From Alphaproteobacteria bacterium (GTDB taxonomy: Bacteria; Pseudomonadota; Alphaproteobacteria; SHVV01): a stretch of 64,000 nucleotides of DNA. The notes under the pieces are model-generated. The model saw nothing but the letters and a program-made list of their open reading frames with translations. It was not told the DNA's origin and did not search any database. Where the stretch lies: assembly GCA_965261735.1 (NCBI GenBank), contig OZ253470.1:3584001-3648000 (forward strand), written 5' to 3'. How positions within the stretch are numbered: the first letter of the stretch is position 1; every line of letters begins with the position of its first letter. This document shows, in pieces, positions 8,239-57,544 of the stretch. The position numbers were made by a program, and so were the translations under genes.

Positions 8239-10071
8239 CGTCTTATCTGGTCGCCAGTCAGACGCCCGGCATGTCCGCCGTGCAGTTTCAGCGGCAACTT
8301 GGTCTTTCGCGCTACGAGACGGCCTTTCAAATTCTCCACAAGCTCCGCTCGGGCATGGTGCGGCCCAACCAAGACAGGATCGGTGGACAGCCCAAGAACC
8401 ATGTTGAGGTGGACGAAACCTGGGTTGGCGGGCGAACGCGTGGGGAAGGCCGTGGTGTTCACCACAAGGTTCCCGTCTCCTGTGCCATCGAGGTGCGTCA
8501 TCGAAAGCCGGGCACCAAGCTCGACAACCGGAAAGACGGACGCTATGCCGGACGCGTTCGGCTCGCCGTCGTGCTCGACCGTAGCGCCGAGTCGCTCTGT
8601 GGGTTCGTCGAGAGCACCGTCGCGCCGCGATCGCTGATCGTTACTGACGATTGGAGCGGCTATGCTTGCCTATCCGGTTAACGCCCATGACCGCTACATG
8701 TAGGGTGCCGCCACTCTCCCGAGTAAAGCTCGGCATAGGTTGGAGCAGAGGTGTCGCCCGCGATGCCGAGCAATGAGCGGAAGGCGTTGAACGGGTAGAA
8801 CCGCCTGTTGAAGCGGAAGGTGAACTCGTTGAGGTAGGCTTGTAGGTGCTGGTGGCTAACGCCGTGGGTGGATACCGATCAGCCACGTCTTCAGGTTGGC
8901 GAAAACCAGATGGATGATCGGCAGGTATTGCTCGGCAACCTCTGGATCACCACACTCGGCAACAGCGAAGTGCTCATAGCCGCGCTTACCGAGGCCAGCA
9001 TAGCCGCTCCAATCGTCAGTAACGGTCAGCGATCGCGGCGCGACGGTGCTCTCGACGAACCCACAGAGCGACTCGGCGCTACGGTCGAGCACGACGGCGA
9101 GCCGAACGCGTCCGGCATAGCGTCCGTCTTTCCGGTTGTCGAGCTTGGTGCCCGGCTTTCGATGACGCACCTCGATGGCACAGGAGACGGGAACCTTGTG
9201 GTGAACACCACGGCCTTCCCCACGCGTTCGCCCGCCAACCCAGGTTTCGTCCACCTCAACATGGTTCTTGGGCTGTCCACCGATCCTGTCTTGGTTGGGC
9301 CGCACCATGCCCGAGCGGAGCTTGTGGAGAATTTGAAAGGCCGTCTCGTAGCGCGAAAGACCAAGTTGCCGCTGAAACTGCACGGCGGACATGCCGGGCG
9401 TCTGACTGGCGACCAGATAAGCGGCCCAGAACCAGACGTTCAGCGGAGTGTGGCTACGCTCCATCACTGTTCCCACCGTCAGCCCGGTGTTCTGGCGGCA
9501 CTTGCGGCAGCGCAGGACGCCAGGGCGGTTTTCAAAGTGGAACGGCTCTCCCGCCGTGCCGCAGTGCGGGCAGGCAAAGCCGTCTCCCCAGCGGGCTTTC
9601 TCCAGGTAGGCGGCGCAGGCCGCATCATCGGGGAAAAGTCGCTGGAACTCGGGTAGCGAATGCGGGAATGGGAGATCGGCGCGGTCGAGAACATCCATGG
9701 CGCGCTCCCCTATATCCGGGTTGAGGCAAGCGGCTATGCTGGCCTCGGTAAGCGCGGCTATGAGCACTTCGCTGTTGCCGAGTGTGGTGATCCAGAGGTT
9801 GCCGAGCAATACCTGCCGATCATCCATCTGGTTTTCGCCAACCTGAAGACGTGGCTGATCGGTATCCACCACGGCGTTAGCCACCAGCACCTACAAGCCT
9901 ACCTCAACGAGTTCACCTTCCGCTTCAACAGGCGGTTCTACCCGTTCAACGCCTTCCGCTCATTGCTCGGCATCGCGGGCGACACCTCTGCTCCAACCTA
10001 TGCCGAGCTTTACTCGGGAGAGTGGCGGCACCCTACATGTAGCGGTCATGGGCGTTAACCGGATAGGCAAG
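8239..10071 (+). mobile_element. 5'-truncated IS1595 (ISSod11 group) interrupted by an inverted copy of itself
   Basis: Sequence identical to the multicopy element; right TIR CCGGATAGGCAAG ends at 10071. Confidence 0.9.
8665..9730 (-). mobile_element. IS1595 (ISSod11 group) nested copy, frameshifted, with a deletion inside its left end
   Basis: TSD CGGCTATG at 8657-8664 and 9731-9738; ends CTTGCCTATCC / AGGCAAG. Confidence 0.92.
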
Positions 10072-10948: not shown

Positions 10949-12053
10949 CTTGTCTATCCGGTTAACGCCCATGACCGCTACATGTAGGGTGCCGCCACTC
11001 TCCCGAGTAAAGCTCGGCATAGGTTGGAGCAGAGGTGTCGCCCGCGATGCCGAGCAATGAGCGGAAGGCGTTGAACGGGTAGAACCGCCTGTTGAAGCGG
11101 AAGGTGAACTCGTTGAGGTAGGCTTGTAGGTGCTGGTGGCTAACGCCGTGGTGGATACCGATCAGCCACGTCTTCAGGTTGGCGAAAACCAGATGGATGA
11201 TCGGCAGGTATTGCTCGGCAACCTCTGGATCACCACACTCGGCAACAGCGAAGTGCTCATAGCCGCGCTTCCCGAGGCCAGCATAGCCGCTCCAATCGTC
11301 AGTAACGATCAGCGATCGCGGCGCGACGGTGCTCTCGACGAACCCACAGAGCGACTCGGCGCTACGGTCGAGCACGACGGCGAGCCGAACGCGTCCGGCA
11401 TAGCGTCCGTCTTTCCGGTTGTCGAGCTTGGTGTCCGGCTTTCGATGACGCACCTCGATGGCACAGGAGACGGGAACCTTGTGATGAACACCACGGCCTT
11501 CCCCACGCGTTCGCCCGCCAACCCAGGTTTCGTCCACCTCAACATGGTTCTTGGGCTGTCCACCGATCCTGTCTTGGTTGGGCCGCACCATGCCCGAGCG
11601 GAGCTTGTGGAGAATTTGAAAGGCCGTCTCGTAGCGCGAAAGACCAAGTTGCCGCTGAAACTGCACGGCGGACATGCCGGGCGTCTGACTGGCGACCAGA
11701 TAAGCGGCCCAGAACCAGACGTTCAGCGGAGTGTGGCTACGCTCCATCACTGTTCCCACCGTCAGCCCGGTGTTCTGGCGGCACTTGCGGCAGCGCAGGA
11801 CGCCAGGGCGGTTTTCAAAGTGGAACGGCTCTCCCGCCGTGCCGCAGTGCGGGCAGGCAAAGCCGTCTCCCCAGCGGGCTTTCTCCAGGTAGGCGGCGCA
11901 GGCCGCATCATCGGGGAAAAGTCGCTGGAACTCGGGTAGCGAATGCGGGAATGGGAGATCGGCGCGGTCGAGAACATCCATGGCGCGCTCCCCTATATCC
12001 GGGTTGCGCCCATTCTAGCCCTAGTGGGTGTGGGTGTAAACCGGATAGGCAAG
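10949..12053 (-). mobile_element. IS1595 (ISSod11 group), complete; transposase 10962-11981
   Basis: TIR CTTG(C/T)CTATCCGGTT; TSD GTTGTAAT; CPHC...CRKC, EVDETW, VTDDW, YLNEFTFRFN. Confidence 0.96.
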
Positions 12054-12289
12054 GTTGTAATCAAGACGAATGCGGATTTCATCAATCGACTGACCCTCCC
12101 TGAACGCAATTGGCTCCGGATGGCAACGCGGTCGCGCGAGGGGCGTCCGTCCGTTCGCGCGGGGAAGGTCGGGACGAAAGCGCGGGAGCCGGCGGCGCCT
12201 TACGCTGTTCCTTCCGGGGAGTCACGGCACGGGGTGGAGCCCGGACTACAGCCACTTGGCAATACTGCGCCGGAGCCGGCAGGTGGGGG

Positions 12290-17042: not shown

Positions 17043-19849
17043 GGTCGTGTCCCAGGACGTGGTGTAGGAGTTGTTGGAGCCTCTGGTAGCTGTGGGTAGG
17101 CGGCTTGCCGTAGCGACCGCCGAGAGTCTGGCGTAGGCAAGCCGGCTATCCACAGCGGAGGCCATCGCGGTTCCGGTTTAGGGTTGGGCTAGTGCAAACC
17201 AACCTGACCCGAAGGAGAACCACGATGACCCAGGACATGATGACCCTGCGCGCGCTTTTGGAGAAGAGCTCCGATGCCGATCTGCTTTGCGAGATGATCG
17301 GCTTCACGGCCGAGCGGCTGATGGCACTGGAGGTTGAGGGCCTGACCGGCGCCGGGCACGGCGAGCGCTCGGCGGATCGTATCACCCATCGCAACGGCTA
17401 CCGCGACCGGTCCTGGGAGACGCGGGCCGGCACGGTCGAGCTGAAGATCCCGAAGCTGAGGAAGGGAAGCTACTTCCCGGGCTTCCTGGAGCCGCGGCGG
17501 ATGGCCGAGAAGGCGCTGGCTGCGGTGATCCAGGAGGCCTACATCCAGGGGGTGTCGACCCGCTCGGTCGACGATCTGGTTCAGGCGATGGGGATGTCGG
17601 GCGCCTCCAAGAGCCAGGTCTCCAGGCTGTGCGGCGAGATCGACGATAAGGTCACCGGCTTCCTCGATCGACCGCTGGAGGGCGACTGGCCCTATCTGTG
17701 GCTCGACGCCACCTACGTGAAGGTGCGCCAGACCGGACGCATCGTCTCGGTCGCGGTGACCGTGGCTGTGGCCGTCAACGACCAAGGCCGCCGCGAGGTC
17801 CTGGGCGTGGCGATCGGCGCGTCGGAGGCCGAGACCTTCTGGACCGAGTTCCTGCGCTCGCTGGCCCGGCGCGGGCTGCGCGGCGTGAAGCTGGTGATCT
17901 CCGACGACCACAAGGGCCTGAAGGCCGCCGCGACCCGGATCCTCGGCGCCACATGGCAGCGCTGCCGCGTGCACTTCGCCCGCAACCTGCTGGCCCATGC
18001 CGGCCGCCAGGGCCGGCGCGTCGTCTCCGCCTTCGCCCAGGAGGACGCCGACAGCGCGAAGGTCCAGTGGCGCCAGGTCGCCGACCAGCTCAGGCCCAAG
18101 GTGCCCAAGCTGGCAGTTCTCATGGACGAAGCCGAGCACGACGTCCTCGCCTACATGAGCTTCCCCAGGGAGCACCGCCAGAAATTGCACTCCACAAACC
18201 CGATCGAACGTGTGTGGACGCCCCCGTTGATGCAAGCAGTTTTTGGTCGGCTCGGTGCATGCGGTCAGGTGCTGTCGTGTGTCCGGCCTCTCTATGCGGC
18301 AGATGACACGCCGCGGGCCCGTATGGAGATACGCGGATTGGGTCCAAATCGGTTACGCGAGCTTGAAAGCTCTCCGTTCGGATGCTGGTTTTCCCAACCC
18401 GGTCTCGTTGACCTTTGCCCTTACCTGTCCTCCGTCCTGCCCACATCCCCGACGGCTTCCCGCACTTCGCCGTTCTCTCAGGCGGTGGCGGGAGCCCGGT
18501 AGCTCTTCTTCTTCGTCAGTAGCACCCAGACGATGCGCGCCATCCTGTTGGCCAGCGCCACCGCGACGAGCATCCTCGGCTTGCGCGCCAGCATCCCGGC
18601 CAGCCAGGGGTCCGTCGTCACGCCGCGCCGAACCGCCCAGCGGACCACAGTCATCGCGCCTGTGATCAGCAGCCGTCTCAGATCGCGCTGGCCCATCTTC
18701 GATATCTTGCCCAGCTTCGGCTTGCCGCCGGTCGTGTGCTGGCGCGGCACGAGGCCGAGCCAAGCGGAGAAGTCGCGGCCGCGCCGGAAACTCTCCATCG
18801 GCGGTGCGAAGGCCTGGATTGCCATCGCGCTGATCGGCCCGATCCCCGGCACGCTCATCAGGCGCCTCGCCTCCTCATCCTGCCGTGCTCTCACGTGGAC
18901 CTCCCTCTCCAGGCCCGCAATCTTCGCATCGAGGCCGGCGATCTGCTCAAGCAGAAGGCCGGCCAGCTCGCGGACCGCTTCCGGCAACCTCGAAGCCGGT
19001 CCCTCAAGCGCCGAGGCCAGCCGGCCGACATGAGCCGGCCCTGTGGGGCAATGACACCGAACTCCGCCAGATGGCCGCGCAGCGCATTAATCGTCTGGGT
19101 GCGCTGGCGCACCAGAAGATCGCGCGTCCGGAACAGCATGCCCCGAGCCTGCTGTTCCTCCGTCTTCACAGCCACAAAGCGCATGGTCGGCCGCGACGAC
19201 GCCTCGCAGATCGCCTCCGCATCCGACGCGTCGTTCTTTTGCCGCTTGACGTACGCTTTGACGTAGATCGGTGGGACCAGTCGCACCGCATGGCCGAGAC
19301 TGCCGATCTCCCGGCCCCAATGGTGCGCGCCGCCGCACGCCTCCATCGCCACCGTGCAGCGTGGCTGCGCAGCCACAAAGTCCAACAGCTTCGCCCGGCT
19401 CAGCTTCTTGCGGAACGCAACCGACCCATCCGCCCGCGCACCGTGCAGCTGAAAGCTGTTCTTCGCCAGATCGATCCCGATCATGTGAACCTGTTCCATG
19501 GACGCCCCCATCCTCGCTTGGCGTTAACAACACCGCCAACCTGGCACATCGCGATGCCGTCGGGAGGGGCGTCCACCCCATCGGCTCCATGCCGAGGTCA
19601 AGCGTCGCACCAACGTCGTCGGTATCTTTCCCAACGAAGCCGCCATCACACGGCTCGTCGGCGCCATCCTTCTCGAGCAGAACGACGAGTGGGCCGTCTC
19701 AAGGAGATACATGACGCTGGAATCCATCGCTCCGCTGAGCGATGGTGTCCCCATCACGCTGCCCACCGTGGCAGCCTGAACGTCCCGGCCCTACCCGCCG
19801 GGAGCCGCGTAGAGCGCAACGCTCTTACACCACTCCGCGGGACACGATC
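17043..19849 (+). mobile_element. IS256 type 1 disrupted by IS1111
   Basis: Both TIRs present; interrupted at TNPIE|RL; flanks GCTACACG / CTGGCTGA do not match. Confidence 0.95.
18211..19583 (-). mobile_element. IS110 family (IS1111 group) copy 1; transposase frameshifted
   Basis: Subterminal IR GTGGACGCCCC, 7 nt from the left end and 3 nt from the right end; CG core; ORF split into 18891-19511 and 18478-18987. Confidence 0.95.
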
Positions 19850-22989: not shown

Positions 22990-23039
22990 CGCAGGACGCA
23001 AGCCAGTTGTAATGCGAGCGGTTCCGAGTTACAATTAAC

Positions 23040-24144
23040 CTTGCCTATCCGGTTTACACTCACACCCACTAGGGCTAGAATGGGCGCAAACCGGATATAG
23101 GGGAGCGCGCCATGGATGTTCTCGACCGCGCCGATCTCCCATTCCCGCATTCGCTACCCGAGTTCCAGCGACTTTTCCCCGATGATGCGGCCTGCGCCGC
23201 CTACCTGGAGAAAGCCCGCTGGGGAGACGGCTTTGCCTGCCCGCACTGCGGCACGGCGGGAGAGCCGTTCCACTTTGAAAACCGCCCTGGCGTCCTGCGC
23301 TGCCGCAAGTGCCGCCAGAACACCGGGCTGACGGTGGGAACAGTGATGGAGCGTAGCCACACTCCGCTGAACGTCTGGTTCTGGGCCGCTTATCTGGTCG
23401 CCAGTCAGACGCCCGGCATGTCCGCCGTGCAGTTTCAGCGGCAACTTGGTCTTTCGCGCTACGAGACGGCCTTTCAAATTCTCCACAAGCTCCGCTCGGG
23501 CATGGTGCGGCCCAACCAAGACAGGATCGGTGGACAGCCCAAGAACCATGTTGAGGTGGACGAAACCTGGGTTGGCGGGCGAACGCGTGGGGAAGGCCGT
23601 GGTGTTCACCACAAGGTTCCCGTCTCCTGTGCCATCGAGGTGCGTCATCGAAAGCCGGGCACCAAGCTCGACAACCGGAAAGACGGACGCTATGCCGGAC
23701 GCGTTCGGCTCGCCGTCGTGCTCGACCGTAGCGCCGAGTCGCTCTGTGGGTTCGTCGAGAGCACCGTCGCGCCGGGATCGCTGATCGTTACTGACGATTG
23801 GAGCGGCTATGCTGGCCTCGGTAAGCGCGGCTATGAGCACTTCGCTGTTGCCGAGTGTGGTGATCCAGAGGTTGCCGAGCAATACCTGCCGATCATCCAT
23901 CTGGTTTTCGCCAACCTGAAGACGTGGCTGATCGATATCCACCACGGCGTTAGCCACCAGCACCTACAAGCCTACCTCAACGAGTTCACCTTCCGCTTCA
24001 ACAGGCGGTTCTACCCGTTCAACGCCTTCCGCTCATTGCTCGGCATCGCGGGCGACACCTCTGCTCCAACCTATGCCGAGCTTTACTCGGGAGAGTGGCG
24101 GCACCCTACATGTAGCGGTCATGGGCGTTAACCGGATAGGCAAG
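23040..24144 (+). mobile_element. IS1595 (ISSod11 group), complete; transposase 23112-24131
   Basis: TIRs present; near-perfect TSD CAATTAAC / CAATCAAC. Confidence 0.96.
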
Positions 24145-24265
24145 CAATCAACTCGCCGATAAGGTGTCCAAATGGGAAATCTCGGGCACAATCCCTGCCA
24201 AGGCGCGGGCGGGCCGGACCGGGTGAATCGTATCGGCAATGGCAAAACAGCGAGGGAGAGAACTC

Positions 24266-24999: not shown

Positions 25000-26373
25000 T
25001 GTGTGGACGCCCCCGTTGATGCAAGCAGTTTTTGGTCGGCTCGGTGCATGCGGTCAGGTGCTGTCGTGTGTCCGGCCTCTCTATGCGGCAGATGACACGC
25101 CGCGGGCTCGTATGGAGATACGCGGATTGGGTCCAAATCGGTTACGCGAGCTTGAAAGCTCTCCGTTCGGATGCTGGTTTTCCCAACCCGGTCTCGTTGA
25201 CCTTTGCCCTTACCTGTCCTCCGTCCTGCCCACATCCCCGACGGCTTCCCGCACTTCGCCGTTCTCTCAGGCGGTGGCGGGAGCCCGGTAGCTCTTCTTC
25301 TTCGTCAGTAGCGCCCAGACGATGCGCGCCATCCTGTTGGCCAGCGCCACCGCGACGAGCATCCTCGGCTTGCGCGCCAGCATCCCGGCCAGCCAGGGGT
25401 CCGTCGTCACGCCGCGCCGAACCGCCCAGCGGACCACAGTCATCGCGCCTGTGATCAGCAGCCGTCTCAGATCGCGCTGGCCCATCTTCGATATCTTGCC
25501 CAGCTTCGGCTTGCCGCCGGTCGTGTGCTGGCGCGGCACGAGGCCGAGCCAAGCGGAGAAGTCGCGGCCGCGCCGGAAACTCTCCATCGGCGGTGCGAAG
25601 GCCTGGATTGCCATCGCGCTGATCGGCCCGATCCCCGGCACGCTCATCAGGCGCCTCGCCTCCTCATCCTGCCGTGCTCTCACGTGGACCTCCCTCTCCA
25701 GGCCCGCAATCTTCGCATCGAGGCCGGCGATCTGCTCAAGCAGAAGGCCGGCCAGCTCGCGGACCGCTTCCGGCAACATCGAAGCCGGTCCCCCAAGCGC
25801 CGAGGCCAGCCGGCCGACATGAGCCGGCCCCTGCGGGGCAATGACACCGAACTCCGCCAGATGGCCGCGCAGCGCATTAATCGTCTGGGTGCGCTGGCGC
25901 ACCAGAAGATCGCGCGTCCGGAACAGCATGCCCCGAGCCTGCTGTTCCTCCGTCTTCACAGCCACAAAGCGCATGGTCGGCCGCGACGACGTCTCGCAGA
26001 TCGCCTCCGCATCCGACGCGTCGTTCTTTTGCCGCTTGACGTACGCTTTGACGTAGATCGGTGGGACCAGTCGCACCGCATGGCCGAGACTGCCGATCTC
26101 CCGGCCCCAATGGTGCGCGCCGCCGCACGCCTCCATCGCCACCGTGCAGCGTGGCTGCGCAGCCACAAAGTCCAACAGCTTCGCCCGGCTCAGCTTCTTG
26201 CGGAACGCAACCAACCCATCCGCCCGCGCACCGTGCAGCTGAAAGCTGTTCTTCGCCAGATCGATCCCGATCATGTGAACCTGTTCCATGGACGCCCCCT
26301 TCCTCGCTTGGCGTTAACAACACCGCCAACCTGGCACATCGCGATGCCGTCGGGAGGGGCGTCCACCCCATCG
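25000..26373 (-). mobile_element. IS1111-group element copy 2, intact (recombinase 25267-26289)
   Basis: GIDLAK, MEAC, KNDASDAEAI (DEDD RuvC-like domain), GLVP...TTGGK; inserted in CCGAA-CG-GTTAC. Confidence 0.97.
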
Positions 26374-30769: not shown

Positions 30770-31875
30770 CTTGCCTATCCGGTTAACGCCCATGACCGCT
30801 ACATGTAGGGTGCCGCCACTCTCCCGAGTAAAGCTCGGCATAGGTTGGAGCAGAGGTGTCGCCCGCGATGCCGAGCAATGAGCGGAAGGCGTTGAACGGG
30901 TAGAACCGCCTGTTGAAGCGGAAGGTGAACTCGTTGAGGTAGGCTTGTAGGTGCTGGTGGCTAACGCCGTGGTGAGATACCGATCAGCCACGTCTTCAGG
31001 TTGGCGAAAACCAGATGGATGATCGGCAGGTATTGCTCGGCAACCTCTGGATCACCACACTCGGCAACAGCGAAGTGCTCATAGCCGCGCTTCCCGAGGC
31101 CAGCATAGCCGCTCCAATCGTCAGTAACGATCAGCGATCGCGGCGCGACGGTGCTCTCGACGAACCCACAGAGCGACTCGGCGCTACGGTCGAGCACGAC
31201 GGCGAGCCGAACGCGTCCGGCATAGCGTCCGTCTTTCCGGTTGTCGAGCTTGGTGCCCGGCTTTCGATGACGCACCTCGATGGCACAGGAGACGGGAACC
31301 TTGTGGTGAACACCACGGCCTTCCCCACGCGTTCGCCCGCCAACCCAGGTTTCGTCCACCTCAACATGGTTCTTGGGCTGTCCACCGATCCTGTCTTGGT
31401 TGGGCCGCACCATGCCCGAGCGGAGCTTGTGGAGAATTTGAAAGGCCGTCTCGTAGCGCGAAAGACCAAGTTGCCGCTGAAACTGCACGGCGGACATGCC
31501 GGGCGTCTGACTGGCGACCAGATAAGCGGCCCAGAACCAGACGTTCAGCGGAGTGTGGCTACGCTCCATCACTGTTCCCACCGTCAGCCCGGTGTTCTGG
31601 CGGCACTTGCGGCAGCGCAGGACGCCAGGGCGGTTTTCAAAGTGGAACGGCTCTCCCGCCGTGCCGCAGTGCGGGCAGGCAAAGCCGTCTCCCCAGCGGG
31701 CTTTCTCCAGGTAGGCGGCGCAGGCCGCATCATCGGGGAAAAGTCGCTGGAACTCGGGTAGCGAATGCGGGAATGGGAGATCGGCGCGGTCGAGAACATC
31801 CATGGCGCGCTCCCCTATATCCGGGTTGCGCCCATTCTCACCCTAGTGGGTGTGGGTGTAAACCGGATAGGCAAG
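30770..31875 (-). mobile_element. IS1595 (ISSod11 group), frameshifted near the 3' end
   Basis: TIRs present; ORF shortened to 280 aa; flanks do not match. Confidence 0.94.
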
Positions 31876-31883
31876 GACGGAAC

Positions 31884-32184
31884 TAAGGTGGCTTCGGTTT
31901 GTCGGACAGCTTGGCGGCTCAGTTAAGGTGTATTCCAGTTGTCGTTCATGCCGCCAGAATCCCTTTGAATAGATCTCCTTGCCGTTGTTGTTGCGCCTGT
32001 GGGGATGTGGGCAAGGCGCGTAGCGACTTGTCCATCATATCCACAGGCGGGGCGCCGCGGTAGGCCTCGGCCGGCGTTTTTCCCCCGAGCGCCGAGTGCG
32101 GCCTCTCGGTGTTGTAGAAGTCGATCCACTCGCCGATGACGCGCCGGGCCTCGAAGCCGTCGGCGAGCTCGCGCAGATAGACGG
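31884..32184 (-). pseudogene. 3' fragment of an IS3 closely related to 20248-21589
   Basis: Near identity to 20248-20548. Confidence 0.88.
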
Positions 32185-32734
32185 TGGAGTGACCCCCTAA
32201 AAGGGGTCCAGATTTATTAAAGAGTTTGGCGCATTTTGCCCCCTCGAAAGGAGGACAAAATGAGCCGTAAACGCTACACCTCAGAACAGATTATCAGCAT
32301 GTTGCGCGAAGCCGAGGTGGCTTTGGCGCAGGGCCAGTCCGTTGGTCAAGCTTGTCGCACACTCGGCGTATCGGAGCAGAGTTGCTATCGCTGGCGCAAG
32401 GAATATGGCGGCCTTCGTACTGACCAGGCCAAGCGTCTGAAGGACCTGGAGAAGGAGAATGGCCGTCTCCGGAAGGCGATCTCGGATCTGACGTTGGATA
32501 AGCTGATCTTGCAAGAGGCGCTTGAGGGAAATTGCTAAGCCCCGCCCGTCGCCGGCAGTGTGTTGATCATCTCCAGGCCGAACTGGGAATCTCCGAGCGA
32601 CGTGCCTGTGCTGTTGCAGGCCAACATCGCTCAACCCAGCCCAAGAGACCCCGTGGTCGGGATGATGAAGAGGCACTCACGGCCGCGATCATCCGCTTGG
32701 CCAGCCAGTATGGCAGATATGGCTATCGGCGGAT
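32185..32734 (+). mobile_element. IS3 (IS407-group-like) left part: orfA 32260-32538 and start of orfB, cut by IS256
   Basis: MSRKRYTSEQII...RLKDLEKENGRL; GGGAAAT slippery site; RYGYRR. Confidence 0.88.
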
Positions 32735-33000
32735 GATCGTGTCCCGCGGAGTGGTGTAAGAGCGTTGCGCTCTACGCGGCTCCCGGCGGGTAGGGCCGGG
32801 ACGTTCAGGCTGCCACGGTGGGCAGCGTGATGGGGACACCATCGCTCAGCGGAGCGATGGATTCCAGCGTCATGTATCTCCTTGAGACGGCCCACTCGTC
32901 GTTCTGCTCGAGAAGGATGGCGCCGACGAGCCGTGTGATGGCGGCTTCGTTGGGAAAGATACCGACGACGTTGGTGCGACGCTTGACCTCGGCATGGAGC

Positions 33001-34374
33001 CGATGGGGTGGACGCCCCTCCCGACGGCATCGCGATGTGCCAGGTTGGCGGTGTTGTTAACGCCAAGCGAGGAAGGGGGCGTCCATGGAACAGGTTCACA
33101 TGATCGGGATCGATCTGGCGAAGAACAGCTTTCAGCTGCACGGTGCGCGGGCGGATGGGTTGGTTGCGTTCCGCAAGAAGCTGAGCCGGGCGAAGCTGTT
33201 GGACTTTGTGGCTGCGCAGCCACGCTGCACGGTGGCGATGGAGGCGTGCGGCGGCGCGCACCATTGGGGCCGGGAGATCGGCAGTCTCGGCCATGCGGTG
33301 CGACTGGTCCCACCGATCTACGTCAAAGCGTACGTCAAGCGGCAAAAGAACGACGCGTCGGATGCGGAGGCGATCTGCGAGGCGTCGTCGCGGCCGACCA
33401 TGCGCTTTGTGGCTGTGAAGACGGAGGAACAGCAGGCTCGGGGCATGCTGTTCCGGACGCGCGATCTTCTGGTGCGCCAGCGCACCCAGACGATTAATGC
33501 GCTGCGCGGCCATCTGGCGGAGTTCGGTGTCATTGCCCCACAGGGGCCGGCTCATGTCGGCCGGCTGACCTCGGCGCTTGAGGGACCGGCTTCGAGGTTG
33601 CCGGAAGCGGTCCGCGAGCTGGCCGGCCTTCTGCTTGAGCAGATCGCCGGCCTCGATGCGAAGATTGCGGGCCTGGAGAGGGAGGTCCACGTGAGAGCAC
33701 GGCAGGATGAGGAGGCGAGGCGCCTGATGAGCGTGCCGGGGATCGGGCCGATCAGCGCGATGGCAATCCAGGCCTTCGCACCGCCGATGGAGAGTTTCCG
33801 GCGCGGCCGCGACTTCTCCGCTTGGCTCGGCCTCGTGCCGCGCCAGCACACGACCGGCGGCAAGCCGAAGCTGGGCAAGATATCGAAGATGGGCCAGCGC
33901 GATCTGAGACGGCTGCTGATCACAGGCGCGATGACTGTGGTCCGCTGGGCGGTTCGGCGCGGCGTGACGACGGACCCCTGGCTGGCCGGGATGCTGGCGC
34001 GCAAGCCGAGGATGCTCGTCGCGGTGGCGCTGGCCAACAGGATGGCGCGCATCGTCTGGGTGCTACTGACGAAGAAGAAGAGCTACCGGGCTCCCGCCAC
34101 CGCCTGAGAGAACGGCGAAGTGCGGGAAGCCGTCGGGGATGTGGGCAGGACGGAGGACAGGTAAGGGCAAAGGTCAACGAGACCGGGTTGGGAAAACCAG
34201 CATCCGAACGGAGAGCTTTCAAGCTCGCGTAACCGATTTGGACCCAATCCGCGTATCTCCATACGGGCCCGCGGCGTGTCATCTGCCGCATAGAGAGGCC
34301 GGACACACGACAGCACCTGACCGCATGCACCGAGCCGACCAAAAACTGCTTGCATCAACGGGGGCGTCCACACA
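33001..34374 (+). mobile_element. IS1111-group element copy 3, intact (recombinase 33085-34107)
   Basis: CGATGGG-GTGGACGCCCC ... GGGGCGTCCAC-ACA ends. Confidence 0.97.
34108..34374 (+). ncRNA. Predicted bridge/seek RNA of the IS1111 element; exact RNA ends unknown; also on the minus strand at 18211-18477, 25000-25266 and 50575-50841
   Basis: Stem GGGTTGGG/CCCAATCC encloses CCGAACG - hairpin GAGCT-TTCA-AGCTC - GTAACCG; a second loop carries CCATACG and ACACACGA, matching the element-end junction. Confidence 0.85.
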
Positions 34375-35652
34375 CGTTCGATCGGGTTTGTGGAGTGCAA
34401 TTTCTGGCGGTGCTCCCTGGGGAAGCTCATGTAGGCGAGGACGTCGTGCTCGGCTTCGTCCATGAGAACTGCCAGCTTGGGCACCTTGGGCCTGAGCTGG
34501 TCGGCGACCTGGCGCCACTGGACCTTCGCGCTGTCGGCGTCCTCCTGGGCGAAGGCGGAGACGACGCGCCGGCCCTGGCGGCCGGCATGGGCCAGCAGGT
34601 TGCGGGCGAAGTGCACGCGGCAGCGCTGCCATGTGGCGCCGAGGATCCGGGTCGCGGCGGCCTTCAGGCCCTTGTGGTCGTCGGAGATCACCAGCTTCAC
34701 GCCGCGCAGCCCGCGCCGGGCCAGCGAGCGCAGGAACTCGGTCCAGAAGGTCTCGGCCTCCGACGCGCCGATCGCCACGCCCAGGACCTCGCGGCGGCCT
34801 TGGTCGTTGACGGCCACAGCCACGGTCACCGCGACCGAGACGATGCGTCCGGTCTGGCGCACCTTCACGTAGGTGGCGTCGAGCCACAGATAGGGCCAGT
34901 CGCCCTCCAGCGGTCGATCGAGGAAGCCGGTGACCTTATCGTCGATCTCGCCGCACAGCCTGGAGACCTGGCTCTTGGAGGCGCCCGACATCCCCATCGC
35001 CTGAACCAGATCGTCGACCGAGCGGGTCGACACCCCCTGGATGTAGGCCTCCTGGATCACCGCAGCCAGCGCCTTCTCGGCCATCCGCCGCGGCTCCAGG
35101 AAGCCCGGGAAGTAGCTTCCCTTCCTCAGCTTCGGGATCTTCAGCTCGACCGTGCCGGCCCGCGTCTCCCAGGACCGGTCGCGGTAGCCGTTGCGATGGG
35201 TGATACGATCCGCCGAGCGCTCGCCGTGCCCGGCGCCGGTCAGGCCCTCAACCTCCAGTGCCATCAGCCGCTCGGCCGTGAAGCCGATCATCTCGCAAAG
35301 CAGATCGGCATCGGAGCTCTTCTCCAAAAGCGCGCGCAGGGTCATCATGTCCTGGGTCATCGTGGTTCTCCTTCGGGTCAGGTTGGTTTGCACTAGCCCA
35401 ACCCTAAACCGGAACCGCGATGGCCTCCGCTGTGGATAGCCGGCTTGCCTACGCCAGACTCTCGGCGGTCGCTACGGCAAGCCGCCTACCCACAGCTAAC
35501 AGAGGCTCCAACAACTCCTACACCACGTCCTGGGACACGACCTTCCTCCTTTGCTCAGCAGCCACTGCGGTACCACGCTTTGCGATCCGCGCACTCATTT
35601 TTTGTATATTATTTGGAAGCGGAAAAAGGTTTCGTAAAGCAGCGGAACTAGC

Positions 35653-39069: not shown

Positions 39070-40503
39070 GGTCGTGTCCCAGGACGTGGTGTAGGAGTTG
39101 TTGGAGCCTCTGTTAGCTGTGGGTAGGCGGCTTGCCGTAGCGACCGCCGAGAGTCTGGCGTAGGCAAGCCGGCTATCCACAGCGGAGGCCATCGCGGTTC
39201 CGGTTTAGGGTTGGGCTAGTGCAAACCAACCTGACCCGAAGGAGAACCACGATGACCCAGGACATGATGACCCTGCGCGCGCTTTTGGAGAAGAGCTCCG
39301 ATGCCGATCTGCTTTGCGAGATGATCGGCTTCACGGCCGAGCGGCTGATGGCACTGGAGGTTGAGGGCCTGACCGGCGCCGGGCACGGCGAGCGCTCGGC
39401 GGATCGTATCACCCATCGCAACGGCTACCGCGACCGGTCCTGGGAGACGCGGGCCGGCACGGTCGAGCTGAAGATCCCGAAGTTGAGGAAGGGAAGCTAC
39501 TTCCCGGGCTTCCTGGAGCCGCGGCGGATGGCCGAGAAGGCGCTGGCTGCGGTGATCCAGGAGGCCTACATCCAGGGGGTGTCGACCCGCTCGGTCGACG
39601 ATCTGGTTCAGGCGATGGGGATGTCGGGCGCCTCCAAGAGCCAGGTCTCCAGGCTGTGCGGCGAGATCGACGATAAGGTCACCGGCTTCCTCGATCGACC
39701 GCTGGAGGGCGACTGGCCCTATCTGTGGCTCGACGCCACCTACGTGAAGGTGCGCCAGATCGGACGCATCGTCTCGGTCGCGGTGACCGTGGCTGTGGCC
39801 GTCAACGACCAAGGCCGCCGCGAGGTCCTGGGCGTGGCGATCGGCGCGTCGGAGGCCGAGACCTTCTGGACCGAGTTCCTGCGCTCGCTGGCCCGGCGCG
39901 GGCTGCGCGGCGTGAAGCTGGTGATCTCCGACGACCACAAGGGCCTGAAGGCCGCCGCGACCCGGATCCTCGGCGCCACATGGCAGCGCTGCCGCGTGCA
40001 CTTCGCCCGCAACCTGCTGGCCCATGCCGGCCGCCAGGGCCGGCGCGTCGTCTCCGCCTTCGCCCAGGAGGACGCCGACAGCGCGAAGGTCCAGTGGCGC
40101 CAGGTCGCCGACCAGCTCAGGCCCAAGGTGCCCAAGCTGGCAGTTCTCATGGACGAAGCCGAGCACGACGTCCTCGCCTACATGAGCTTCCCCAGGGAGC
40201 ACCGCCAGAAATTGCACTCCACAAACCCGATCGAACGGCTCCATGCCGAGGTCAAGCGTCGCACCAACGTCGTCGGTATCTTTCCCAACGAAGCCGCCAT
40301 CACACGGCTCGTCGGCGCCATCCTTCTCGAGCAGAACGACGAGTGGGCCGTCTCAAGGAGATACATGACGCTGGAATCCATCGCTCCGCTGAGCGATGGT
40401 GTCCCCATCACGCTGCCCACCGTGGCAGCCTGAACGTCCCGGCCCTACCCGCCGGGAGCCGCGTAGAGCGCAACGCTCTTACACCACTCCGCGGGACACG
40501 ATC
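39070..40503 (+). mobile_element. IS256 type 1, complete
   Basis: TIRs; flanks CAGCTTGA / CCTCAATG. Confidence 0.97.
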
Positions 40504-40804
40504 CCTCAATGCCATCGTTATCGATAATTTGGCGGAGCCCCCGCGTCATCTGGTAGTCGGCCGTGCGGCTCTTCTCAACGAAGATTGTGTGCGCCATGTT
40601 GAGACGCCCGGTCCTCGCCTCATGGTCGTCGGACTTTTCATAGACAAAGATGATGAGGTGGTAACCGAGCCCATAAATCTTTTGGCGCGCCGACTTGAAT
40701 GGACAAGAGGACTGAGGTTGCCGGATGCTTGTGACCTTGATATCCAAATCGAGGCTCGGAATGTCGATGCCGCTAGCGGAGTTGCCCTCAGGCATCTCAA
40801 GCTG
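40504..40804 (-). pseudogene. Inverted middle fragment of a type II restriction endonuclease
   Basis: GNSASGID...DIKVTSIRQPQSSCPF (PD-(D/E)xK-like); the reading frame continues at 42239. Confidence 0.82.
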
Positions 40805-42238
40805 GATCGTGTCCCGCGGAGTGGTGTAAGAGCGTTGCGCTCTACGCGGCTCCCGGCGGGTAGGGCCGGGACGTTCAGGCTGCCACGGTGGGCAGCGTGA
40901 TGGGGACACCATCGCTCAGCGGAGCGATGGATTCCAGCGTCATGTATCTCCTTGAGACGGCCCACTCGTCGTTCTGCTCGAGAAGGATGGCGCCGACGAG
41001 CCGTGTGATGGCGGCTTCGTTGGGAAAGATACCGACGACGTTGGTGCGACGCTTGACCTCGGCATGGAGCCGTTCGATCGGGTTTGTGGAGTGCAATTTC
41101 TGGCGGTGCTCCCTGGGGAAGCTCATGTAGGCGAGGACGTCGTGCTCGGCTTCGTCCATGAGAACTGCCAGCTTGGGCACCTTGGGCCTGAGCTGGTCGG
41201 CGACCTGGCGCCACTGGACCTTCGCGCTGTCGGCGTCCTCCTGGGCGAAGGCGGAGACGACGCGCCGGCCCTGGCGGCCGGCATGGGCCAGCAGGTTGCG
41301 GGCGAAGTGCACGCGGCAGCGCTGCCATGTGGCGCCGAGGATCCGGGTCGCGGCGGCCTTCAGGCCCTTGTGGTCGTCGGAGATCACCAGCTTCACGCCG
41401 CGCAGCCCGCGCCGGGCCAGCGAGCGCAGGAACTCGGTCCAGAAGGTCTCGGCCTCCGACGCGCCGATCGCCACGCCCAGGACCTCGCGGCGGCCTTGGT
41501 CGTTGACGGCCACAGCCACGGTCACCGCGACCGAGACGATGCGTCCGGTCTGGCGCACCTTCACGTAGGTGGCGTCGAGCCACAGATAGGGCCAGTCGCC
41601 CTCCAGCGGTCGATCGAGGAAGCCGGTGACCTTATCGTCGATCTCGCCGCACAGCCTGGAGACCTGGCTCTTGGAGGCGCCCGACATCCCCATCGCCTGA
41701 ACCAGATCGTCGACCGAGCGGGTCGACACCCCCTGGATGTAGGCCTCCTGGATCACCGCAGCCAGCGCCTTCTCGGCCATCCGCCGCGGCTCCAGGAAGC
41801 CCGGGAAGTAGCTTCCCTTCCTCAGCTTCGGGATCTTCAGCTCGACCGTGCCGGCCCGCGTCTCCCAGGACCGGTCGCGGTAGCCGTTGCGATGGGTGAT
41901 ACGATCCGCCGAGCGCTCGCCGTGCCCGGCGCCGGTCAGGCCCTCAACCTCCAGTGCCATCAGCCGCTCGGCCGTGAAGCCGATCATCTCGCAAAGCAGA
42001 TCGGCATCGGAGCTCTTCTCCAAAAGCGCGCGCAGGGTCATCATGTCCTGGGTCATCGTGGTTCTCCTTCGGGTCAGGTTGGTTTGCACTAGCCCAACCC
42101 TAAACCGGAACCGCGATGGCCTCCGCTGTGGATAGCCGGCTTGCCTACGCCAGACTCTCGGCGGTCGCTACGGCAAGCCGCCTACCCACAGCTACCAGAG
42201 GCTCCAACAACTCCTACACCACGTCCTGGGACACGACC
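40805..42238 (-). mobile_element. IS256 type 1, complete
   Basis: TIRs; flanks TCAAGCTG / CATTGAGG. Confidence 0.97.
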
Positions 42239-50420: not shown

Positions 50421-50449
50421 GGATTCCCCATGTTGGAACCGATCCACGC

Positions 50450-52003
50450 GGTCGTGTCCCAGGACGTGGTGTAGGAGTTGTTGGAGCCTCTGGTAGCTGT
50501 GGGTAGGCGGCTTGCCGTAGCGACCGCCGAGAGTCTGGCGTAGGCAAGCCGGCTATCCACAGCGGAGGCCATCGTGTGTGGACGCCCCCGTTGATGCAAG
50601 CAGTTTTTGGTCGGCTCGGTGCATGCGGTCAGGTGCTGTCGTGTGTCCGGCCTCTCTATGCGGCAGATGACACGCCGCGGGCCCGTATGGAGATACGCGG
50701 ATTGGGTCCAAATCGGTTACGCGAGCTTGAAAGCTCTCCGTTCGGATGCTGGTTTTCCCAACCCGGTCTCGTTGACCTTTGCCCTTACCTGTCCTCCGTC
50801 CTGCCCACATCCCCGACGGCTTCCCGCACTTCGCCGTTCTCTCAGGCGGTGGCGGGAGCCCGGTAGCTCTTCTTCTTCGTCAGTAGCGCCCAGACGATGC
50901 GCGCCATCCTGTTGGCCAGCGCCACCGCGACGAGCATCCTCGGCTTGCGCGCCAGCATCCCGGCCAGCCAGGGGTCCGTCGTCACGCCGCGCCGAACCGC
51001 CCAGCGGACCACAGTCATCGCGCCTGTGATCAGCAGCCGTCTCAGATCGCGCTGGCCCATCTTCGATATCTTGCCCAGCTTCGGCTTGCCGCCGGTCGTG
51101 TGCTGGCGCGGCACGAGGCCGAGCCAAGCGGAGAAGTCGCGGCCGCGCCGGAAACTCTCCATCGGCGGTGCGAAGGCCTGGATTGCCATCGCGCTGATCG
51201 GCCCGATCCCCGGCACGCTCATCAGGCGCCTCGCCTCCTCATCCTGCCGTGCTCTCACGTGGACCTCCCTCTCCAGGCCCGCAATCTTCGCATCGAGGCC
51301 GGCGATCTGCTCAAGCAGAAGGCCGGCCAGCTCGCGGACCGCTTCCGGCAACCTCGAAGCCGGTCCCTCAAGCGCCGAGGCCAGCCGGCCGACATGAGCC
51401 GGCCCCTGCGGGGCAATGACACCGAACTCCGCCAGATGGCCGCGCAGCGCATTAATCGTCTGGGTGCGCTGGCGCACCAGAAGATCGCGCGTCCGGAACA
51501 GCATGCCCCGAGCCTGCTGTTCCTCCGTCTTCACAGCCACAAAGCGCATGGTCGGCCGCGACGACGCCTCGCAGATCGCCTCCGCATCCGACGCGTCGTT
51601 CTTTTGCCGCTTGACGTACGCTTTGACGTAGATCGGTGGGACCAGTCGCACCGCATGGCCGAGACTGCCGATCTCCCGGCCCCAATGGTGCGCGCCGCCG
51701 CACGCCTCCATCGCCACCGTGCAGCGTGGCTGCGCAGCCACAAAGTCCAACAGCTTCGCCCGGCTCAGCTTCTTGCGGAACGCAACCAACCCATCCGCCC
51801 GCGCACCGTGCAGCTGAAAGCTGTTCTTCGCCAGATCGATCCCGATCATGTGAACCTGTTCCATGGACGCCCCCTTCCTCGCTTGGCGTTAACAACACCG
51901 CCAACCTGGCACATCGCGATGCCGTCGGGAGGGGCGTCCACCCCATCGGCTCCATGCCGAGGTCAAGCGTCGCACCAACGTCGTCGGTATCTTTCCCAAC
52001 GAG
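50450..52003 (+). mobile_element. Deleted IS256::IS1111 composite (IS256 left 125 bp + IS1111 + ~55 bp of IS256)
   Basis: IS256 left TIR at 50450; sequence jumps from GGCCATCG straight into the IS1111 end. Confidence 0.92.
50575..51948 (-). mobile_element. IS1111-group element copy 4, intact (recombinase 50842-51864)
   Basis: Same ends and 340-aa ORF as the other copies. Confidence 0.96.
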
Positions 52004-52109
52004 GCCCGCCCTGACAAAGCAGCGAGTGTCGCACCCCCGAGACCGAAGGGATCAGCGGATACCGCCGAACCCGGCCGCGAGGTCCTCGCGCGCGATGACG
52101 CCACCCATG

Positions 52110-53263: not shown

Positions 53264-53305
53264 TGGGGTGGCTCCGGAAAATCCGACAGGTGTTGAAGTT
53301 CAGGT
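53264..53305 (+). mobile_element. IS3 left-end remnant
   Basis: TGGGGTGGCTCCGGAAAATCCGACAGG resembles the left TIR at 21589. Confidence 0.6.
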
Positions 53306-54410
53306 CTTGCCTATCCGGTTTACACCCACACCCACTAGGGCTAGAATGGGCGCAACCCGGATATAGGGGAGCGCGCCATGGATGTTCTCGACCGCGCCGA
53401 TCTCCCATTCCCGCATTCGCTACCCGAGTTCCAGCGACTTTTCCCCGATGATGCGGCCTGCGCCGCCTACCTGGAGAAAGCCCGCTGGGGAGACGGCTTT
53501 GCCTGCCCGCACTGCGGCACGGCGGGAGAGCCGTTCCACTTTGAAAACCGCCCTGGCGTCCTGCGCTGCCGCAAGTGCCGCCAGAACACCGGGCTGACGG
53601 TGGGAACAGTGATGGAGCGTAGCCACACTCCGCTGAACGTCTGGTTCTGGGCCGCTTATCTGGTCGCCAGTCAGACGCCCGGCATGTCCGCCGTGCAGTT
53701 TCAGCGGCAACTTGGTCTTTCGCGCTACGAGACGGCCTTTCAAATTCTCCACAAGCTCCGCTCGGGCATGGTGCGGCCCAACCAAGACAGGATCGGTGGA
53801 CAGCCCAAGAACCATGTTGAGGTGGACGAAACCTGGGTTGGCGGGCGAACGCGTGGGGAAGGCCGTGGTGTTCACCACAAGGTTCCCGTCTCCTGTGCCA
53901 TCGAAGTGCGTCATCGAAAGCCGGGCACCAAGCTCGACAACCGGAAAGACGGACGCTATGCCGGACGCGTTCGGCTCGCCGTCGTGCTCGACCGTAGCGC
54001 CGAGTCGCTCTGTGGGTTCGTCGAGAGCACCGTCGCGCCGCGATCGCTGATCGTTACTGACGATTGGAGCGGCTATGCTGGCCTCGGTAAGCGCGGCTAT
54101 GAGCACTTCGCTGTTGCCGAGTGTGGTGATCCAGAGGTTGCCGAGCAATACCTGCCGATCATCCATCTGGTTTTCGCCAACCTGAAGACGTGGCTGATCG
54201 GTATCCACCACGGCGTTAGCCACCAGCACCTACAAGCCTACCTCAACGAGTTCACCTTCCGCTTCAACAGGCGGTTCTACCCGTTCAACGCCTTCCGCTC
54301 ATTGCTCGGCATCGCGGGCGACACCTCTGCTCCAACCTATGCCGAGCTTTACTCGGGAGAGTGGCGGCACCCTACATGTAGCGGTCATGGACGTTAACCG
54401 GATAGGCAAG
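53306..54410 (+). mobile_element. IS1595 (ISSod11 group), complete; transposase 53378-54397
   Basis: TIRs present; flanks do not match. Confidence 0.96.
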
Positions 54411-54464
54411 AAACGAGTCAGTAAATAGAAACCGTCGGTGTCTCAAAGTCGTTGACAGGTTCCG

Positions 54465-56385: not shown

Positions 56386-57490
56386 CTTGCCTATCCGGTT
56401 AACGCCCATGACCGCTACATGTAGGGTGCCGCCACTCTCCCGAGTAAAGCTCGGCATAGGTTGGAGCAGAGGTGTCGCCCGCGATGCCGAGCAATGAGCG
56501 GAAGGCGTTGAACGGGTAGAACCGCCTGTTGAAGCGGAAGGTGAACTCGTTGAGGTAGGCTTGTAGGTGCTGGTGGCTAACGCCGTGGTGGATACCGATC
56601 AGCCACGTCTTCAGGTTGGCGAAAACCAGATGGATGATCGGCAGGTATTGCTCGGCAACCTCTGGATCACCACACTCGGCAACAGCGAAGTGCTCATAGC
56701 CGCGCTTACCGAGGCCAGCATAGCCGCTCCAATCGTCAGTAACGATCAGCGATCGCGGCGCGACGGTGCTCTCGACGAACCCACAGAGCGACTCGGCGCT
56801 ACGGTCGAGCACGACGGCGAGCCGAACGCGTCCGGCATAGCGTCCGTCTTTCCGGTTGTCGAGCTTGGTGCCCGGCTTTCGATGACGCACCTCGATGGCA
56901 CAGGAGACGGGAACCTTGTGGTGAACACCACGGCCTTCCCCACGCGTTCGCCCGCCAACCCAGGTTTCGTCCACCTCAACATGGTTCTTGGGCTGTCCAC
57001 CGATCCTGTCTTGGTTGGGCCGCACCATGCCCGAGCGGAGCTTGTGGAGAATTTGAAAGGCCGTCTCGTAGCGCGAAAGACCAAGTTGCCGCTGAAACTG
57101 CACGGCGGACATGCCGGGCGTCTGACTGGCGACCAGATAAGCGGCCCAGAACCAGACGTTCAGCGGAGTGTGGCTACGCTCCATCACTGTTCCCACCGTC
57201 AGCCCGGTGTTCTGGCGGCACTTGCGGCAGCGCAGGACGCCAGGGCGGTTTTCAAAGTGGAACGGCTCTCCCGCCGTGCCGCAGTGCGGGCAGGCAAAGC
57301 CGTCTCCCCAGCGGGCTTTCTCCAGGTAGGCGGCGCAGGCCGCATCATCGGGGAAAAGTCGCTGGAACTCGGGTAGCGAATGCGGGAATGGGAGACCGGC
57401 GCGGTCGAGAACATCCATGGCGCGCTCCCCTATATCCGGGTTGCGCCCATTCTAGCCCTAGTGGGTGTGGGTGTAAACCGGATAGGCAAG
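56386..57490 (-). mobile_element. IS1595 (ISSod11 group), complete; transposase 56399-57418
   Basis: TIRs; TSD GTTAAGGC. Confidence 0.97.
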
Positions 57491-57544
57491 GTTAAGGCGT
57501 TAGGAGTATGGTGTTAACTGCCACCGGAGTCTGCGGGATTGAAA

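Follow-up and report, generated by a model that had tools for sequence, protein, structure and literature searches.

The insertion sequences (ISs) of the IS1111 group, which belongs to the IS110 family, are set apart by their subterminal inverted repeats, by a transposase of 330-350 aa and by a long non-coding region 3' of the gene (Siddiquee et al. 2024, Nat Commun 15:5235; this and the other papers on such systems are drawn on here in part). Their seekRNA has a short form of 82-96 nt and a long form of about 150-170 nt, co-purifying with the transposase, and within it the match to the top strand of the target lies 5' of the match to the bottom strand; in four members of the group, an RNase-sensitive species that co-purifies with the transposase acts in trans from a plasmid (Siddiquee et al. 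2024). Durrant et al. 2024, who define the subterminal inverted repeats of IS1111 elements as 7-17 bp long, predict that 93.0% of the IS1111 elements in ISfinder carry a bridge RNA in their right end and also predict donor loops for elements of this group. Here we describe an IS1111-type element, its recombinase gene and its putative guide RNA in a window of 64,000 nt, the whole stretch of DNA that was analysed, from an alphaproteobacterial genome (contig OZ253470.1).

The element at 33003-34376 (plus strand) is a member of the IS1111 group of the IS110 family, as it has all the structural features by which the group is recognised. From its sequence and that of its relatives, we consider it very probable that it is an active element that reads DNA through a guide RNA. 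The DEDD recombinase would act together with a non-coding RNA from the 3' non-coding region, of the same sense as the gene, in which the guides of a first loop would aim the element at GTAAC-CG-TTCGG and those of a second loop, ACACACGA (left donor guide, LDG) and CUCCAU (right donor guide, RDG), would pair with the two strands of the circle junction CACACA-CG-ATGGGG; recombination at the common CG would insert the circle in one orientation and without target duplication. What is observed is the anatomy of the element, the concordance of its guides with flanks and with ends, and the covariation of guides and of stems; by analogy with the described systems, we infer that the guide is an RNA, that the recombinase binds it and that strand exchange follows the same chemistry.

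Element boundaries and recombinase gene

All coordinates are window positions unless a genome position is named, and target and joint strings are written in the orientation of the element. The 1374 bp of copy A, at 33003-34376, include one CG core counted at the right end (34375-34376), the second CG at 33001-33002 belonging to the target side. The host sequence is the transposase gene (Pfam Transposase_mut) of an IS256-family element, which copy A interrupts and which in its uninterrupted copies reads GGAGC-CG-TTCGA at this site. The ends are fixed by 14 copies in the genome, whose flanks begin to diverge exactly there. The left end (33003-33016, plus strand) consists of a 5-nt extension, ATGGG, followed by the left subterminal inverted repeat GTGGACGCC (33008-33016), and the right end (34348-34376, plus strand) of a conserved GCTTGCATC (34348-34356), the repeat GGCGTCCAC (34363-34371), ACA and the core CG. 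The two repeats are thus 9 bp long and set in by 5 nt from either end (ACA plus CG on the right), and the left-end form [CT]G-ATGG[GA]-GTGGACGCC is conserved in 66 of the 84 sequences that were compared. Non-coding sequence amounts to 82 nt at the left end and to 269 nt, without a plausible gene, at the right. Insertion occurs without target duplication, the CG being common to both joints and a single copy being left after removal, and in all 14 copies the left-flank consensus has one orientation.

The recombinase gene (33085-34107, plus strand) encodes a protein of 340 aa that is of the DEDD/RuvC-like type according to Pfam and to an alignment of residues. Its matches to DEDD_Tnp_IS110 (PF01548, 6.6e-15) and Transposase_20 (PF02371, 4e-22) both exceed the curated cut-offs; residues D10, E53, D90 and D93 align with the ISCro4 chain in an alignment that also included the IS621 chain; and the C-terminal motif GL-P----S/T-G, described for IS1111 elements in Siddiquee et al. 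2024, is present as GLVPRQHTTG at residues 249-258, in its TG variant (T257-G258). With an unnamed transposase of the IS110 family, encoded on a plasmid of Methylocystis, the protein shares 68.8% identity. An original prediction, made from the DNA letters of the window, had proposed a recombinase of the IS110/IS1111 type at this place, and the Pfam domains, the subterminal repeats and the downstream non-coding region all agree with it. It had further stressed the compact size and the CG core, which are both as it described them and neither of them distinctive, since 340 aa falls within the usual range of IS1111 transposases and since the insertion point of ISPa11, ISKpn4 and ISPst6 likewise lies directly before CG (2026 review, Table 1).

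Target loop and target guides

The target-binding stem-loop (34185-34250, plus strand) is predicted to be closed by GGGTTGGG (34185-34192) with CCCAATCC (34243-34250), a stem of 8 pairs with one G-U, to which CC/GG at 34197-98 with 34240-41 is added. On the same strand it holds, in this order, the right target guide (RTG) CCGAACG (34204-34210), the small hairpin GAGCT-TTCA-AGCTC (34213-34226), which separates the two guides, and the left target guide (LTG) GTAACCG (34229-34235), the naming being that of Durrant et al. 2024. The RTG is the reverse complement of the core and right flank and hence complementary to the top strand CG-TTCGG, whereas the LTG, being identical to the top strand GTAAC-CG (left flank and core), pairs with the bottom strand.

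The site that these guides spell is occupied by copy B (25000-26373, minus strand), which lies in the genome's only perfect 12-bp target. Removal of copy B leaves ttggCCGAACGGTTACcgg, and the restored site, read in the orientation of the element, is GTAAC-CG-TTCGG, which is covered by the target guides with 7+7 nt on opposite strands, overlapping at the core. This is the restoration on which the original prediction had been built, and it was reproduced, as was every sequence string quoted there at the position given for it.

Segments of only 7-8 nt invite the explanation that the matches are due to chance, or are a functionless by-product of the duplication of the ends, and when the 255-nt non-coding region was dinucleotide-shuffled 20000 times, the RTG 7-mer alone did indeed turn up in 1118 of the shuffles. 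The pair of target 7-mers, by contrast, was present in only 17 of the 20000, and guides vary in step with flanks in 42 guide pairs and across three lineages of one genome, as described below, which makes an origin by chance scarcely credible.

Copies and insertion sites in the genome

The genome that was searched is the single 5.03-Mb contig containing the window. Using the element as a query, blastn returned 46 hits, namely 14 full-length copies at 99.49-100% identity, of which four (A to D) lie in the window, two right-end fragments at more than 99%, five full-length copies of a sister lineage at 81-82%, and shorter, more distant relatives. The 340-aa frame is intact in 13 of the 14 full-length copies and broken in copy C (18209-19581, minus strand), which with 1373 bp is one base short, has a stop at aa 203 and lies in the same IS256 site as copy A. 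For this pair of copies we considered two histories, independent insertions into the same IS256 site and a composite that was spread by transposition of IS256. The 13 copies of equal length have identical guides and differ in their non-coding parts only at 34148 (6 copies), 34339 (1 copy) and 34266 (copy B). The last of these differences is a G>A change in copy B (26106 region, homologous to 34266) that turns GGCC into AGCC and would break a conserved pair of the donor stem. The suggestion that the element has been recently active is well borne out by 14 copies of at least 99.49% identity, 13 of them intact, and by guides that covary with flanks.

The left flanks of the 14 copies read AAC-CG in 11 cases, a consensus at other genomic sites that the original prediction had counted on, and GTAAC-CG in 5 of the 14; GGAGC-CG is found in the 3 copies at the IS256 site. 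On the right, TTCG follows directly after the core in 6 of the 14, and one extra G stands before TTCG or TTGA in 3. At these last sites (genome 374884, 1280067 and 1548909), the extra G between the core and the right half-site suggests that a shift of one base between left and right recognition is tolerated.

Unoccupied perfect targets are missing from this genome, be they 10-, 11- or 12-mers (0.6-1.9 expected for 11- and 12-mers), so that the site of copy B is the sole perfect one; two unoccupied G[TC]AACCGTTCG sites exist. The IS256 site GGAGC-CG-TTCGA, which agrees with the target at three of the five positions on the left and at four of the five on the right, is occupied three times as compared with 58 uninterrupted copies. 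Natural on-target and off-target sites had both been expected from the window: it does supply the perfect site, and its off-targets come down to this one weak IS256 site.

Guides and flanks in sister lineages and relatives

The sister-lineage copies (genome 439468-440845, 647573-648955, 3421879-3423256, 4173239-4174616 and 4347336-4348713; blastn) have a scaffold that is almost unchanged, the differences falling exactly at the guide segments, and a TG core. Four of them (B1) have the flanks CAAAAA-TG-TACCAC together with the RTG GTGGTACA and the LTG AAAAATG, and the fifth (B2) has the flanks CAAAAT-TG-ACCCC together with the RTG GGGTCA and the LTG CAAAATTG; in both B1 and B2, the donor segment is ACAGATGA in place of ACACACGA, in step with a right end that has changed to CCACAGA-TG. 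A third IS1111-type lineage, C, with the same RNA scaffold, gave 10 nhmmer hits in the genome (for example 368816-369003 and 1965014-1965201) and terminates in CCATACA-TG. Its RNA contains the RTG-like GGCATTGT, and the right flank fits ACAATGCC exactly in 5 of the 10 and, when one mismatch is allowed, in 9. Six further single scaffold hits were found by nhmmer elsewhere in the genome.

A scan of genome contigs with the recombinase yielded 80 loci with 65-98% aa identity, 79 of them from metagenome-assembled genomes and one (L080) from a cultured strain of Salipiger thiooxidans, the hosts being labelled Alphaproteobacteria, Binatia, Longimicrobiales and other groups. Together with four copies from the element's own genome, these make up 84 sequences, of which 66 have ends that are clear and follow the pattern [CT]G-ATGG[GA]-repeat ... 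repeat-NNN-[CT]G; the 18 outside the counts are two without a repeat pair and 16 in which the automatic pairing of repeats was spurious. On a scaffold that hardly varies, the 66 sequences with clear ends carry 42 different guide pairs. When an exact run of at least 5 nt, core excluded, was taken as a match, the LTG matched the left flank in 45 of 63 cognate combinations as against 34 of 1664 non-cognate ones (2.0%), and the RTG matched the right flank in 42 of 63 as against 79 of 1664 (4.7%). The covariation of guides with flanks, both within the genome and among the relatives, supports the view that guides overlapping at the core specify the target, as had been proposed. Two of the relatives, L013 and L014, have CG at the left joint and CA at the right, with an RTG that holds the complement of CA, which means that the two joints carry different ‘cores’.

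A conserved, predicted RNA scaffold

The guides are embedded in a predicted conserved RNA scaffold (34161-34353, plus strand) whose outer stem is formed by 34161-34167 with 34347-34353 and which likely represents the extent of the long guide RNA. Its structure was obtained from an alignment of 48 distinct non-coding regions, with a consensus of 32 pairs in 8 helices, one of the smaller elements being a hairpin at 34173-34183 (plus strand). Standard pairing is found in 98.0% of the cells of this alignment, as compared with 26-40% when the partners are slid by 1-3 columns, and both sides have changed at 9 pairs, a number that was reached in 0 of 500 shuffles (shuffled mean 3.7), the pairs having been counted on the same alignment from which the structure was derived. 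Covariation across homologues had been named beforehand as a check on the original prediction, and compensatory changes are what these relatives display.

The bulk of the covariation signal comes from the target-loop stem (helix 4), where both partners have changed at 5 of the 8 pairs (GC has become AU in 8 sequences, for instance) and 98.7% of the cells are paired. In the hairpin at 34213-34226 (helix 6), the second pair is variously AU, GC, UA, GU and CG, and 21 sequences have changed on both sides. The donor stems (helices 7 and 8), with 99.0% and 99.6% of cells paired, are mostly invariant, show changes on both sides at one pair and contribute little.

G-U pairs are frequent, with UG in 21 sequences at one pair and GU in 12 at another, and fit the gene strand only. 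The guides could in principle also act as single-stranded DNA of the element, in a recognition of the IS200/IS605 type; G-T pairs are possible in DNA too, and an RNA was not directly seen here. Against this stands the RNase-sensitive species acting in trans in four members of the IS1111 family (Siddiquee et al. 2024), a family of which the present recombinase is a full-length relative, and we regard recognition by single-stranded DNA as highly improbable and continue with an RNA as the putative guide.

Second loop and element ends

The second loop carries the RDG CTCCATACG (34257-34265, plus strand), in which CTCCAT can pair with ATGGGG of the left end, one of the pairs being G-U, and in which the AC-G tail (CCATACG at 34259-34265) is of uncertain role. 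The predicted inner stems of the donor loop follow (34266-34300, plus strand), with GGCC/GGCC at 34266-69 with 34297-300 and GCGGC/GCCGC at 34271-75 with 34285-89, and then the LDG ACACACGA (34303-34310, plus strand), which is identical to the right-end tip ACACA followed by the core CG and the base with which the left end starts. The circle junction expected from the ends is CCACACA-CG-ATGGGG, and the identity of the LDG with this junction, a further claim of the original prediction, holds.

The LDG 8-mer by itself was found in 275 of the 20000 shuffles of the non-coding region. Among the 66 relatives with clear ends, the LDG exists in 12 distinct variants and in 55 cases matches the sequence's own junction, that is right-end tip, core and first left-end base, at 8 of 8 positions. 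That the right-end tip is followed so closely speaks for a reading of the donor by RNA in IS1111 elements, as in those of IS110. In the homologues of the RDG, CCAT is always kept, opposite a left-end ATGG that is itself invariant in the 66 relatives, and with both partners invariant, covariation is silent on this pairing.

Transcription and the weighing of alternatives

By analogy with ISEc11, which serves as the model for a junction promoter (Siddiquee et al. 2024), the RNA would be transcribed from a promoter formed at the circle junction and/or as the tail of the recombinase mRNA. The nearly invariant GCTTGCATC at 34348-34356 could be the -35 half of a promoter that is completed when the ends are joined; the same bases also make up the 3' half of the predicted outer stem. 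Contigs of four metatranscriptomic runs from two studies (X1, X2, X5 and X6) were compared with the element. X1 covers 34035-34322 with 4 differences, X2 covers 34067-34188 and 34190-34322, the latter with 0 differences, and X6 covers 34181-34292 with 5 differences. Contigs of runs X2 and X6 have C>G at 34233, which turns the LTG into GTAAGCG, the guide of the 95%-identical relative L003 with its left flank GTAAG-CG, and this implies that guide variants coexist in nature. In one metatranscriptome contig precisely 1374 nt are absent (2 nt being ambiguous), which agrees with the boundaries of the element given above; as evidence of excision this contig was rejected, since the 58 uninterrupted IS256 copies explain it.

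Several observations weigh against a guide RNA, or against one or the other of its loops. The RNA evidence consists of assembled contigs from RNA libraries over 34035-34322, which may contain DNA and which give neither transcription nor strand nor ends, and a scan of 32950-34430 found 0 sigma-70-like promoters in the linear element. The folding of the single sequence is unremarkable, with z = -2.4 for 34108-34376 and z = -0.62 (plus strand) and -0.33 (minus strand) for 34161-34353; not being significant, folding energy was dropped as an argument, and of the check by folding that had been suggested at the outset, the energy failed and the structure, which rests on the comparison with 48 relatives, stood. 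A search of 32500-35000 against Rfam at E-values up to 10 matched no family, the best E-value, 3.4, belonging to unrelated miRNA and snoRNA models. On the target side, the right flank is unrelated to the RTG in 5 of the 14 copies. On the donor side, the last base of the RDG, which would pair with the core, varies between G, A, T and C among the relatives and does not track a CG as opposed to a TG core, so that of the earlier reading of CCATACG as CCATCG with one bulge, the pairing of CCAT with ATGG is kept, and the pairing with the core, though possible for this copy, is not borne out by the comparison. Finally, an 82-nt short RNA of ISEc11, which contains the target loop only, was sufficient for transposition, and Siddiquee et al. 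2024 leave the role of the long form open, which means that a donor-guiding role of loop 2 in IS1111 elements is not experimentally settled.

These last two points also speak for a seekRNA that reads the target alone, in which loop 1 would be the only guide and the recombinase would recognise the ends via the subterminal inverted repeats, the likeness of loop 2 to the right-end tip serving RNA processing, protein binding or a second binding site at the DNA level. Long conserved subterminal repeats do exist, and with CCAT and ATGG invariant, half of loop 2 is without support from covariation. Such a seekRNA would have to account, however, for an LDG that follows the right-end tip through 12 variants and that in lineage B changes together with the core, both of which are hard to explain without a constraint by pairing or shared recognition; the donor loops predicted for IS1111 elements by Durrant et al. 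2024 speak against it as well. We therefore judge a role confined to the target unlikely, and consider that the second loop probably acts as a donor loop, guiding recognition of the ends of the element, a view that we hold with less assurance than that of an RNA-guided element as a whole.

A deletion beside copy D

Copy D (50573-51946, minus strand) has its left end at the IS256 site and its right end joined to another IS256 position. Comparison of 50447-52006 with the intact IS256 copy at 4231-5664 shows that 1043 bp of IS256 are missing beside the right end. The left flank is canonical IS256 and the new right joint reads right end-CG-ATGGCC; the intact IS256 has AAACCGGAACCG-CG-ATGGCC at this place in the orientation of the element, and the joint right end-CG-ATGG mimics a circle junction. 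An LTG-like GGAACCG adjoins the same place in the intact IS256, 2 nt out of register, and is unexplained. Among the right flanks that do not match the RTG, 4 of 5 begin with A, like the left end.

We speculate that copy D records a pseudo-excision, in which the real right joint recombined with a downstream look-alike of the left joint (CG-ATGG) and the DNA between the two was deleted, a tentative idea that we think is rather less likely than not to hold, its product having been reconstructed in one example only, that of copy D. When IS621 excises, it employs both loops across the two joints (Hiraizumi et al. 2026), and ISEc11 needs correct flanks on both sides in order to excise (Siddiquee et al. 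2024), which makes both pseudo-excision and trapping in poor sites plausible. As an alternative, we considered that two insertions lying in different IS256 sites had undergone homologous recombination and so gave rise to copy D; a copy with the other flank that this requires is absent among the 14. If pseudo-excision were general, copies fixed in poor sites would be either trapped, being unable to excise, or scars of such deletions, and the left guide would be the main determinant of where copies persist.

Surroundings of the element

Most of the window is taken up by insertion sequences nested together. The IS256-family element is abundant, with 47 full-length copies in the genome, and its copies in the window include those at 4231-5664, 39070-40504 and 40805-42238. 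Another repeat family of about 0.9-1.1 kb has at least six copies, among them 8867-9723, 11150-12056, 30972-31884 and 56386-57495, with inverted partners near 23037-24153 and 53297-54411; it includes an open reading frame (ORF) of 280 aa at 30961-31803 and probably represents one more insertion sequence. Adjoining the interrupted IS256, an ORF of 100 aa at 32236-32759 has an IS3-type HTH_Tnp_1 domain (2.6e-19) and is likely to be a fragment of yet another insertion sequence.

Comparison with known systems

The recombinase shares 40.2% aa identity over residues 1-336, and the same domain layout, with the transposases of IS4321/IS5075, classic members of the IS1111 family from plasmids of enterobacteria that reportedly target the terminal repeats of Tn21-family transposons. 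A megablast search of the element against plasmids gave no close copy and no named insertion sequence, the best match being 74% identical over 62% of the element. In the literature from 2025 on, we found no report on IS1111 bridge recombinase orthologs; the supplements of the 2024 papers may list this insertion sequence or a near relative.

From what is described of their features, ISEc11/ISXne4, ISPa11, ISKpn4 and ISPst6 are similar to the present element in their transposases of about 340 aa, their subterminal repeats and their downstream non-coding region. These elements likewise have two short target matches that overlap at the insertion point, with the top-strand match on the 5' side, and the natural re-direction among close relatives through replacement of the guides on a conserved stem can be compared with lineages A, B1 and B2 here. 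The element differs from them, as described, in having its own target, GTAAC-CG-TTCGG, and other hosts, namely uncultured Alphaproteobacteria and others.

The bridge RNA of IS621 and ISCro4 (Durrant et al. 2024; Hiraizumi et al. 2024 and 2026) resembles the predicted RNA in its two loops with LTG/RTG and LDG/RDG, each of which reads, or in the predicted RNA would read, both strands around a 2-nt core, and the recombinases have in common the DEDD type and a C-terminal Ser/Thr-Gly finger. The resemblance is a distant one: phmmer relates the recombinase to that of ISCro4 with E = 1.2e-12 and to that of IS621 with E = 7.3e-10, mainly over the C-terminal domain, and IS621, as described, differs by having the RNA in the left end upstream of the gene, the opposite order of guides, a CT core and subterminal repeats of 2-3 bp.

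Thus the element is a clear further example of a class of mechanism known since 2024 as bridge RNA or seekRNA, and not a new mechanism; the literature compared, as far as it is covered here, contains neither this member and its target nor the natural series of guides that a single scaffold bears. The value of the element is that of a resource, with at least 42 natural guide pairs on one scaffold, three of which occur together in one genome. It also offers natural specificity data for a recombinase of the IS1111 type, in the form of occupied sites that include one perfect site, one weak site (3 occupied versus 58 empty) and sites with shifted register. Much less work has been done on systems of the IS1111 type than on IS621 and ISCro4, and the reading of the donor by RNA, to which the second loop of this element would contribute, is the very point that the seekRNA paper, in the part drawn on here, leaves open for them (Siddiquee et al. 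2024).

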